A stretch of 64,000 nt of DNA from an uncultured Actinomycetota bacterium (lineage in GTDB: Bacteria > Actinomycetota > Actinomycetes > JAHEKZ01), in the NCBI GenBank assembly GCA_963743915.1, contig CAVURN010000002.1, positions 512,001 through 576,000 on the forward strand, in the 5' to 3' direction. The translations under genes and the position numbers were made by a program. How positions within the stretch are numbered: the first letter of the stretch is position 1; each line of letters begins with the position of its first letter. This document shows positions 27,725 to 29,873 of this stretch, piece by piece. The notes beneath the pieces were generated by a model. The model saw only the letters and a program-made list of their open reading frames with translations, did no database searches and was not told the origin of the DNA.

Positions 27725-28527
27725 CGAGTGCGCACCGGCTGACTCCCCGATCGGCGACGGCGATCGGGATCGTCTCGCTCATCGGCCTGCTCGCGTTCGG
27801 CTGGCCGCTGCTGGTCGAGCCCGGAACCTGGCTCGCGGAGAGCCCGGACGGGCCCTGGTTCTTCGCGCTGCTGGTGCCCCTGCTGCTCGCCGTGGTGCTG
27901 GCCGAGGTCTCCGAGGGAGGGATCGACGCGAAGACCATCGCGCTGCTGGGGGTGCTCACCGCTGTCGCCGCTGCGCTGCGACCGCTGTCCGGCGGCGTGA
28001 CCGGGTTCCAACCGATGTTCGTGGTGCTGGTGATCGGGGGTCGGGTGTTCGGGCCGGGGTTCGGCTTCCTGCTGGGGGCGACCTCGATGCTCACCTCCGC
28101 CCTGCTGACCGGTGGGGTCGGGCCGTGGCTGCCGTTCCAGATGCTGGGCGCGGCCTGGATCGGTCTCGGCGCCGGGCTGCTCCCCCGGGCCCGAGGACGC
28201 CGTGAGGTCGCCCTGCTGGCCGGGTACGGGGCCCTCACCGCACTGGCCTTCGGACTGCTGCTCAACCTCTGGTTCTGGCCGTTCGTCGTCGCCGACGGAA
28301 GCATCGCCTTCGTCGCGGGTGCGCCCATCACCGAGAACCTCGGTCGGCTGCTCGCCTTCACCGTGGCGACCTCCTGGGGCTTCGACATCCCGAGAGCCTT
28401 GGGGAACGCCGTACTGATCGCGCTGCTCGGTGCGCCGGCGTTGCGGGTGCTGCGGCGCGTCCACCGGGTCGCCGCCTTCGATGCGCTGCCCGAGTTCACG
28501 CCCGCACCCACCCGAGCGACCGCGTGA
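27721..28527 (+). CDS. ECF transporter substrate-specific S component (cobalamin-type by context)
   Basis: DAKTIALLGVL, GGRVFGPGFGF, GGVGPWLPFQM, GFDIPRALGN. Confidence 0.87.
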   Translation: MTSAHRLTPRSATAIGIVSLIGLLAFGWPLLVEPGTWLAESPDGPWFFALLVPLLLAVVLAEVSEGGIDAKTIALLGVLTAVAAALRPLSGGVTGFQPMFVVLVIGGRVFGPGFGFLLGATSMLTSALLTGGVGPWLPFQMLGAAWIGLGAGLLPRARGRREVALLAGYGALTALAFGLLLNLWFWPFVVADGSIAFVAGAPITENLGRLLAFTVATSWGFDIPRALGNAVLIALLGAPALRVLRRVHRVAAFDALPEFTPAPTRATA

Positions 28528-29873
28528 GAGTGCGCCTGCTCGGCACGGGGTCCGCCGACGGGTGGCCCAATCCGTTCTGCACCTGCGCGTCCTGCGCCGA
28601 CGCGCGGCTGACCGGTGCGGTGCGCGGTCAGACCGGCGCCCTGGTCGACGACTCGGTGCTCATCGACTGCGGACCGGAGATCCCCGCCGCCGCCTCGCGG
28701 GCAGGGATCGACCTGACCGGGGTGCGGACCTTGCTCTTCACCCATCAGCACCCGGACCACGTCGGTCCTGCTGTGCTGCTCTTCCGGCACTGGGCACGAC
28801 GAGTCGAACCCCTCGCCGTGTACGCACCGCAGCGGGTGATCGAAGAGCTGCGCCACTGGGTCGCACCGACGGATCCGGTCACGTTCCACGGCGTCACTGC
28901 GGCCGACACCGTCACGTTCGACGGCTACACGGTGCGCACGCTGCCGGCCGACCACGGTGACGTCACGACCGGCGAGGCGGTGCTCTTCGAGCTCACCGCC
29001 CCGGACCGGCGGCGGCTGCTGTACGCCACTGACACCGGTCCGCTCACTGACGACGCGGTGGACGCCCTCCGTGGGAGGCCGCTGGACCTGGTGCTGCTCG
29101 AGGAGACGTTCGGCGACCACGTCACGCACGGGACCCGCCACCTCGACCTGACCACCTTCCCGGACCAGCTGCGCAGGCTGCGCGAAGTGGGCGCACTGGT
29201 CGATGCGACCGACGTGGTCGCCGTCCACCTCTCGCACCACAATCCGCCGACCTCCGAGCTGGCGCGGCGCCTGGCGGCATGGGGAGCGCGGGTCGTCCCC
29301 GACGGCACTGTCATCGACGTCGGCGCAACGGCAGCCTCGCGACCGGCACTCCCCCACCGGACGTTGGTCATCGGCGGAGCGCGGTCGGGCAAGTCGCGGC
29401 ACGCCGAGCAGATGGTCACCGCCTCGTCCCGAGTCACCTACGTGGCGACCGGACCGACCGATGACGGCGACCCGACGTGGTCGGCGCGGGTCGAGTCACA
29501 CCGACGGCGACGGCCCGGTCACTGGACGACGCGCGAGACGACGGACGTGGCCGGCGTCCTGGCGTCGGCGTCTCCGGGCGAGGTGGTGCTCGTCGACTGC
29601 TTGACCCTGTGGCTCACACGGGTCATGGACGACGCCGGCGCGTGGGACGGTGACCTCGCTCTGGTCGACAAGCAGGTCGACCAGCTGCTCGACGCCTGGC
29701 GCGCCACGCGCGCCACTGTCGTCGCCGTCAGCAACGAGGTGGGACAGGGCGTCGTGCCCTCCACGGCGTCCGGCAGACTCTTCCGCGACGCGCAGGGACG
29801 ACTCAACGCGCGCCTGGCCCGCGAGGCCGACGAGGTCGTCATGATGGTGGCCGGGCGTCCGGTCCGCCTGTGA
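28524..29873 (+). CDS. cobU: Fusion: PhnP-like MBL metallo-hydrolase + adenosylcobinamide kinase/cobinamide-phosphate guanylyltransferase
   Basis: N-term [43 protein letters not shown]-term [46 protein letters not shown]; one open frame of 449 aa. Confidence 0.88.

Follow-up and report, generated by a model that had tools for sequence, protein, structure and literature searches.

A PhnP-like hydrolase domain fused to CobU in Actinomycetes: a candidate enzyme of cobamide remodelling

The fusion gene and its operon

The window analysed here is a 64,000-nucleotide stretch of contig CAVURN010000002.1 (positions 512,001 to 576,000 of the forward strand; assembly GCA_963743915.1) from an uncultured Actinomycetota bacterium, and the gene under study is a 449-residue open reading frame (ORF) at 28524..29873 (+), which starts with GTG and carries a metallo-beta-lactamase (MBL) domain and a CobU domain in one frame. 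Three parts can be told apart. The first is a PhnP-like MBL domain with a three-cysteine (Cys3) site and binuclear-metal ligands (residues 1-265; 28524..29318, +), defined by Pfam, NCBIfam, Foldseek and alignments; residues 45-209 match Lactamase_B_2 (PF12706) at 5e-18, with 65.9 bits against a cut-off of 27. It is followed by an inter-domain linker (residues 266-279; 29319..29360, +) and by a CobU domain (adenosylcobinamide kinase / adenosylcobinamide-phosphate (AdoCbi-P) guanylyltransferase; residues 280-449 plus the stop codon; 29361..29873, +), in which residues 280-449 cover positions 1-168 of the 168-position Pfam model PF02283 (3.5e-55; 186.6 bits against a cut-off of 27).

The MBL domain possesses a C-x-C-x-x-C Cys3 site (C19, C21 and C24), the motif THQHPDH (H74, H76, D78 and H79), H144, D170 in YATDTG, H206 and D208 in HLDL, and H235 and H238 in VHLSHH. 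All of these residues, including the complete HxHxDH motif, are invariant in 30 of 30 aligned fused homologues, and the metal ligands are likewise invariant in a second alignment of 18 fused sequences (18/18) with 50-77% overall identity. The CobU half passes the CobU equivalog NF004469 of NCBIfam (172.6 bits against a cut-off of 161), matches CobU chains of the PDB at 2e-30, and is placed by Foldseek with CobU structures first (1c9k, TMt 0.86). Its P-loop GGARSGKS (residues 284-291) and H326 are also invariant in the 30 fused sequences. In the alignment with CobU from Salmonella and Klebsiella, H326 falls on their HH, and it is presumably the residue that is guanylylated, as in the Salmonella enzyme. 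The earlier note on this DNA had described a complete MBL domain joined to an intact CobU; every motif it listed is present in the translation, and the CobU model is matched at full length. As judged from its sequence, the C-terminal half is an ordinary CobU.

An AlphaFold model built from the 30 homologues is confident, with a predicted local distance difference test score (pLDDT) of 87.3 and a predicted template modelling score (pTM) of 0.80; pLDDT falls below 50 solely at residues 271-274, within the linker, whose length varies among the 30 homologues. A stop codon or indel in this linker was looked for in contigs of near-identical sequence from four public short-read runs, aligned over 26900-31100, and none was found: the contig of run X10 (record 13) spans 28442-29788 with 0 gaps, and none of the four runs shows an indel within the fusion ORF. 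The gene is a genuine two-domain enzyme.

A single-sequence search finds Escherichia coli PhnP (3g1p) at E 4.5e-8, and a profile of the 18 fused domains aligns with PhnP over nearly its whole length (E 7.6e-19; positions 2-266/4-251), with the Cys3 site, HxHxDH, H144, D170, H206 and H235 all in register and H206 lying on the 'NHCDL' of PhnP. PhnP is a phosphodiesterase in which the Cys3 residues form a metal site and the His after the fourth motif belongs to the active site. When the N-terminal half is searched with Foldseek, 6b9v (PhnP family; 3.5e-15), PhnP 3g1p (2.9e-14) and PqqB are among the top matches; similarity of the domain to RNase Z and Apyc1 is weak, and the ESM Atlas returns generic MBL clusters only for residues 1-270. 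Pfam does not match His_Phos_1 in the fusion protein, and AP endonuclease 2 is not matched in residues 1-270, where MBL families alone are found. The PhnP equivalog TIGR03307 of NCBIfam is the best named relative, but it scores 54.9 bits against a cut-off of 272.25. PhnJ has no match in the source genome (2.92 Mb in 5 contigs, 90% complete), which thus gives no hint of a C-P lyase pathway, and therefore the substrate of PhnP itself is not expected to be made. The PhnP-like reading of the earlier note thus holds for the aligned ligands and for the fold matches to the PhnP family and PqqB, yet the equivalog cut-off is missed: the domain is PhnP-like, not a PhnP orthologue. The N-terminal half is apparently an MBL metallo-phosphodiesterase of the PhnP branch, and it is predicted to be active.

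The operon runs from a cobalamin riboswitch through an SCO2321-family gene, an SCO2322-family gene, the T component, duplicated ATPase and S component of an energy-coupling factor (ECF) importer, the MBL-CobU fusion, cobT and cobS; an M17 aminopeptidase gene comes next. The riboswitch aptamer (22779..22907, +; Rfam RF00174, 39.2 bits against a gathering threshold of 31.5) is the sole match to that family in the genome. The importer genes are ecfT (24986..26134, +; CbiQ family of Pfam, 6.8e-06, 26.3 bits against a cut-off of 25), the duplicated ATPase gene encoding EcfA-A' (26131..27724, +; ABC_tran twice in 26131-27270 and a C-terminal ABC_tran part in 27218-27724) and the gene of the substrate-capture S component, EcfS (27721..28527, +; ECF_trnsprt of Pfam, 5.4e-10, 40 bits against a cut-off of 30.7). 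The fusion starts within the stop of the S-component gene, with a 4-nucleotide overlap (GTGA), and cobT begins 13 nucleotides downstream of the fusion stop. The arrangement claimed earlier, with the fusion translationally coupled between a B12 ECF importer and cobT/cobS under a cobalamin riboswitch, is borne out by this overlap and by the riboswitch score. Downstream of the fusion, cobT (29887..31018, +) encodes the nicotinate mononucleotide:base phosphoribosyltransferase (DBI_PRT positions 2-197 in frame 1 and 197-329 in the ORF 30530-31018), and cobS (31021..31794, +) encodes the cobamide synthase (CobS of Pfam, 1.5e-42; NF001279, 1.5e-43, under its cut-off).

Two genes of this operon are interrupted in the assembly. 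A 1-base insertion splits cobT near 30505 and another splits the duplicated ECF ATPase gene near 27211; these frameshifts are probably not biological, because the extra bases are missing from the contigs of all four public runs and each gene runs in one frame in all three congeneric genomes compared (3 of 3). The lesions (27205-27220 and 30495-30510) are likely assembly errors or strain-specific lesions, not operon decay, and similar base errors may exist elsewhere in the source genome. At window position 30975, the X10 contig has 12 additional bases, which keep the frame, within the acidic tail at the C-terminal end of cobT. In a genome of the same genus (L186, G140:C3), EcfT is matched in two frames at about 2996-4074 of the reverse-complemented stretch, a possible frameshift or assembly error.

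The first gene of the operon encodes an SCO2321-family membrane protein (22862..24118, +; NF053823, 1.7e-67, 228 bits, under the 300-bit cut-off), and its true start probably lies downstream of 22907. The second encodes an SCO2322-family protein (24120..25013, +; NF040672, 8.5e-49, 165.6 bits against a cut-off of 85). The SCO2321-family protein has a faint, sub-threshold likeness to squalene-cyclase repeats. Genes of these two families (22862-25013 in the window) recur upstream of ecfT in many related loci, and their products could be corrinoid-capture proteins. In the 848-residue frame at 32112-34658 the M17 aminopeptidase domains begin only at residue 350, so that this frame is probably over-extended upstream or hides another gene.

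The earlier note had seen no cbiB, cbiZ or corrin-ring genes in the operon, and this absence extends to the whole of the 90%-complete genome: CbiB and CbiZ have no match, and the genome contains only three TP_methylase domains and no corrin-ring set. CobQ was not found (the best GATase_3 match is GatD, the partner of MurT), and nothing in the genome scores above the cut-off for BluB. A PduO-type adenosyltransferase and six B12-binding domains are encoded, and a histidine-phosphatase paralogue is present below threshold in a 389-residue frame at C2:612007-612546. The source bacterium is a B12 user limited to corrinoid import and to finishing or rebuilding the nucleotide loop. Since it uses B12 and shows no CbiB, CbiZ, CobQ or BluB above the cut-off, it needs a remodelling route.

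Distribution of the fusion and its gene neighbourhoods

The fusion is real and widespread. Among the matches listed, all 120 of 120 homologues (54-100% identical, about 440-480 residues) contain both Pfam domains; 4221 of 8000 scored candidates have E <= 0.001, and at least 597 relatives were confirmed in a scan of one genome per species. The best 80 relatives come from Nocardioidaceae, Nanopelagicales, Frankiaceae, Rhodococcus, Prescottella, Nocardia, Gordonia, Mycolicibacter and Streptomyces. Databases display both domains, yet they name the whole protein 'bifunctional adenosylcobinamide kinase/...guanylyltransferase', after the CobU half alone. Two unusual relatives were seen. P0162 (612 residues, from the representative library) has the MBL domain of the fusion family followed by the C-terminal part of CobT; it could be a true fusion of MBL with CobT or an artefact of gene calling. 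In P0124 from Mycolicibacillus parakoreensis (277 residues) the domain stands alone, with 53% identity, and the C-terminus resembles the beginning of a broken CobU P-loop, so that P0124 may derive from a fusion that was split or has decayed.

For the comparisons that follow we used one sample of 151 genomes from the same taxonomic class, of which 106 have CobU above the cut-off. Scanned with the MBL profile, these 106 fall into 45 with an intact domain (full-length, best piece at least 175 bits, immediately upstream of CobU), 13 with a degenerate domain (fragments of at most 80 bits) and 48 with plain CobU and no domain; the score gap between intact and degenerate copies is clean. Intact copies span 25 families. 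Wherever the domain is found it is tied to CobU: in 58 of the 59 genomes with a match at E <= 1e-10 it directly adjoins CobU, and the lone exception is a weak partial match in a 75%-complete genome with no CobU. The tallies include seven unpublished genomes (G006, G014, G023, G029, G031, G035 and G042).

Genomes without a CbiB match make up 30 of the 45 with an intact domain, 2 of the 13 with a degenerate one and 13 of the 48 with plain CobU. The cbiB-less share is therefore 30/45 for intact against 15/61 for plain or degenerate (Fisher 2.3e-5, a value that ignores kinship and is not to be read as a probability). By family majority, the intact form has 15 cbiB-less and 10 cbiB-bearing families, and the plain form 4 and 17; of the seven families in which both forms occur, three have the intact form as the cbiB-less one and four show no clear contrast. 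Without the seven unpublished genomes the counts of cbiB-less to cbiB-bearing genomes are 29/14 (intact), 2/10 (degenerate) and 13/33 (plain), and the conclusions are unchanged. CbiZ occurs in 7 of the 151 genomes, each of which belongs to the degenerate-domain group of 13 (7/13 versus 0/138); it is found in 0 of 45 intact, 0 of 48 plain and 0 of 45 CobU-less genomes.

Decay of the domain is best seen in Streptomyces. The copies there (about 397 residues) keep the Cys3 site and have lost D78, H79, H144, D170, H206 and D208 in four of four aligned sequences; at the Streptomyces loci L063-L102 (e.g. L073:10001-11188) an N-terminal MBL remnant of about 220 residues stands ahead of CobU. In a quick tree of the CobU domain, whose backbone is not resolved, the Streptomyces copies form one clade (99*), which supports a single origin for this form as far as such a tree can tell; one plain CobU is placed inside a fused group, weakly (92, not starred).

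The gene neighbourhoods were compared at the best 80 loci, 41 of them outside Streptomyces. An ECF S-component gene lies directly upstream of the fusion at 17 of the 41 loci outside Streptomyces and at 0 of the 39 within it; cobT is present no more than 10 kb away at 20 of 41 and 38 of 39, respectively, and cobS was found at 58 of the 80. In a Rhodococcus and a Nocardia (L032:7030-11332 and L042:7074-11341) the order is cobalamin riboswitch, a BtuF-like protein (Peripla_BP_2), FecCD, an ABC ATPase and then MBL-CobU. The fusion is thus co-transcribed with two unrelated types of corrinoid importer. At six loci of Nocardioidaceae and relatives (L024, L025, L027, L037, L056 and L060) cobS directly follows MBL-cobU, and no match to cobT was found within 10 kb on either side. 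The neighbours of the fused genes in Prescottella equi, Mycolicibacter and Streptomyces have unrelated functions only.

Four plain-CobU genomes (G030, G066, G092 and G064) have the same SCO2322-EcfT-EcfAA'-EcfS-CobU-CobT-CobS operon with the domain missing, and the gap between the EcfS and CobU matches is only about 30-130 bases, which leaves no room for it. A CbiR-like gene was looked for beside the plain-CobU operons, and among the ten neighbouring ORFs scanned there is no member of AP endonuclease 2; one of the ten has a sub-threshold match to the Bacillus HBL family (24.5 versus 29.1 bits).

Proposed role of the MBL domain and the alternatives

We tentatively propose, with a confidence that stops somewhat short of even, that the MBL domain is a nucleotide-loop phosphodiesterase serving cobamide remodelling; the substrate, the bond cut and the hand-over to CobU are all inferred from comparative sequence evidence. 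The domain would open imported complete cobamides at the nucleotide loop, as an accessory activity of salvage, by cutting the phosphodiester that links the aminopropanol phosphate to the alpha-riboside. The product, cobinamide phosphate (Cbi-P) or cobinamide (Cbi), would be passed to the fused CobU as its substrate. CobU, which is expected to phosphorylate imported adenosylcobinamide and to turn AdoCbi-P into adenosylcobinamide-GDP (AdoCbi-GDP) for CobS, would thereby return the corrinoid to loop assembly, and CobT and CobS would then attach the base that is preferred or at hand. Such a role, like that of the known loop phosphodiesterase CbiR, is suggested because the domain is optional, is favoured in genomes without CbiB and has decayed where CbiZ is present; its distribution points to what would be an accessory, salvage-linked function rather than a core step. 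According to the work on CbiR (PMC7733943), CbiZ cleaves an amide bond and needs CbiB for rebuilding the linker. Because of this need the CbiZ route is closed to cbiB-less Actinomycetes. With the same reserve, and at a strength still under one in two, the fusion may represent a new class of remodelling enzyme beside CbiZ, CbiR and CobS, which would be the main route of cbiB-less Actinomycetes and would have been replaced by CbiZ in Streptomyces; in such an enzyme a single polypeptide would both cut imported 'wrong' cobamides and activate them again.

A number of observations weigh against this proposal. Intact copies are not confined to salvagers, as 15 of 45 are in cbiB-bearing genomes, and salvagers evidently manage without the domain, as 13 of the 48 plain-CobU genomes are also cbiB-less. 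The enrichment in cbiB-less genomes ignores phylogeny, and a missing CbiB match in an incomplete genome does not equal absence. The CbiZ pattern comes from two families only (f29 and part of f3) and may reflect one or two evolutionary events, and six of the 13 genomes with a degenerate domain have no CbiZ. CobU by itself would account for the linkage to importers, given that the same operons exist with plain CobU, and B12 genes are missing next to the intact copies of Prescottella and Mycolicibacter. The earlier picture of a fusion belonging to a B12 salvage operon stands in part: linkage to B12 genes was found at many of the best 80 loci, but the fusion also occurs in de novo producers (the 15 cbiB-bearing genomes above) and at loci without such neighbours. 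With no BluB above the cut-off in the source genome, the preferred base would have to come from outside. Finally, distant standalone paralogues of the domain (about 270 residues, 31-38% identical) were examined at 80 metagenome loci; cobU, cobT, cobS or an ECF S component was near them at 0 of 80, and no cluster of neighbours covered more than three loci. The lack of B12 context around these proteins implies that the wider branch has other substrates.

The first alternative is that the domain replaces CobC, stripping the 5'-phosphate from adenosylcobalamin-5'-phosphate or alpha-ribazole-5'-phosphate in the last step of loop assembly. The step has no clearly assigned enzyme in this class, as the CobC equivalog TIGR03162 is above its cut-off in 0 of the 151 genomes; moreover, the domain shares its operon with cobT and cobS, and the substrate of PhnP, a 5-phospho-alpha-ribosyl compound, is in keeping with such a role. 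However, histidine-phosphatase paralogues below the threshold occur in each of the 151 genomes, whether the domain is present or not, and a step needed by producers and salvagers alike would hardly be entrusted to a domain that is missing in 48 of 106 CobU genomes, that is missing from otherwise identical operons and that has lost its catalytic residues in Streptomyces. Most of the characterised proteins of the MBL fold that were matched go by the name of diesterase or nuclease, not monoesterase. An anti-correlation of the fusion with cbiZ and cobC had been suggested as a check by the earlier note; for cbiZ the result in the class sample is that CbiZ occurs solely with a degenerate domain, whereas the uniform CobC counts given above offer no such pattern. 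We regard replacement of CobC as unlikely, and a CbiR-like loop phosphodiesterase fits the comparative evidence better.

About equally unlikely, in our estimate, is a diphosphatase or nucleotide-releasing hydrolase that acts on another intermediate: alpha-5,6-dimethylbenzimidazole adenine dinucleotide (alpha-DAD), which would give alpha-ribazole-phosphate and AMP, or AdoCbi-GDP, or inorganic pyrophosphate, hydrolysis of which would pull or proof-read the CobU reaction. This idea draws on the title of the top structural match, 6b9v, 'a new diphosphatase from the PhnP family', on a review according to which CobT can make alpha-DAD, which would need cleavage (PMC12713380), and on P0162, in which the MBL domain is joined to the C-terminal part of CobT. 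The last of these may be a gene-calling artefact, and a diphosphatase predicts neither the enrichment in cbiB-less genomes, nor the CbiZ pattern, nor an optional domain. The paper behind 6b9v was not found in the literature searched.

Somewhat more doubtful again is a domain that is mainly non-catalytic, a scaffold, oligomerisation or corrinoid-holding module for CobU whose residues are kept for metal-dependent folding. Streptomyces-type copies do retain about 220 residues and the Cys3 site after losing the catalytic residues, which implies a value beyond catalysis, and the pTM of the two-domain model is also compatible with such a module. Outside the degenerate lineages, however, every metal ligand is invariant in both alignments at 50-77% overall identity, and intact and degenerate copies are separated by a clean gap in score instead of grading into each other. 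The least probable alternative, a hydrolase unrelated to B12 (a general phosphodiesterase, or a cyclic-nucleotide or RNA-end hydrolase) that was fused by accident and then inherited, has in its favour the standalone relatives without B12 context and the weak similarity to RNase Z and Apyc1, but is hard to reconcile with a fusion kept across 25 families with intact copies and with a domain that is met away from CobU in just one of 59 genomes.

If the remodelling proposal is true, the capacity predicted from it extends to a large share of Actinomycetes (45 of the 106 CobU genomes sampled), and it would explain how salvagers without cbiB use complete cobamides with an unsuitable lower base. Many genome-predicted 'Cbi salvagers' would then be cobamide remodellers, and among the cbiB-less remodellers would be lineages that abound in freshwater, sediment and soil, for instance Nanopelagicales and Nocardioidaceae. 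In soils, sediments and waters, B12 cross-feeding is shaped by which cobamide each microbe is able to use, and thousands of database entries are at present named solely after the CobU half.

Comparison with known systems

No description or assay of an MBL-CobU fusion was found in the full-text literature searched, outside of which lie supplementary tables and one review on salvaging (PMC11580458), and the same literature yielded no characterised unrelated function for the domain family. By sequence, the closest solved relative is E. coli PhnP, which has the same Cys3 site and metal ligands. The domain described here differs from PhnP in that it falls under the equivalog cut-off, occurs in a genome without a PhnJ match and is fused to CobU in a B12 operon. 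The C-terminal 170 residues are a full-length counterpart of the Salmonella-type CobU/CobP, a single-domain protein of about 180 residues, with the P-loop and the conserved His in place; the fusion differs by adding a 270-residue N-terminal hydrolase domain that annotation ignores. CobC, a histidine phosphatase, belongs to the same short pathway and is likewise a candidate for a 'missing step' in Actinomycetes, but it has a different fold and monoesterase chemistry, and a core step does not suit an MBL domain that is optional in some genomes and degenerate in others.

Two known enzymes resemble the fusion in what it is proposed to do. CbiZ, the adenosylcobinamide amidohydrolase, has the same proposed role of opening a complete cobamide for exchange of the lower base, but it does so by amide-bond cleavage with an unrelated fold and, in the class sample, it is found solely together with a degenerate MBL domain. 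CbiR from Akkermansia muciniphila (Amuc_1679) is reported to hydrolyse adenosylcobalamin to Cbi-P and alpha-ribazole (PMC7733943); it is a member of the AP endonuclease 2 superfamily, with a TIM-barrel fold, and transporter genes lie beside about 25% of cbiR genes (PMC7733943). Its reaction is the same as that proposed here, its product feeds CobU, CobT and CobS, it is encoded in cobamide loci, and remodelling through it bypasses CbiB (PMC7733943). CbiR differs in being a separate TIM-barrel protein with demonstrated activity, whereas the domain in the present operon has an MBL fold, is fused to CobU and owes its activity to prediction. The likeness to CbiR is therefore one of the way of working and not of family membership, and the fusion possibly places an established function, cobamide remodelling, on a fold and in a gene fusion that are both new to it.

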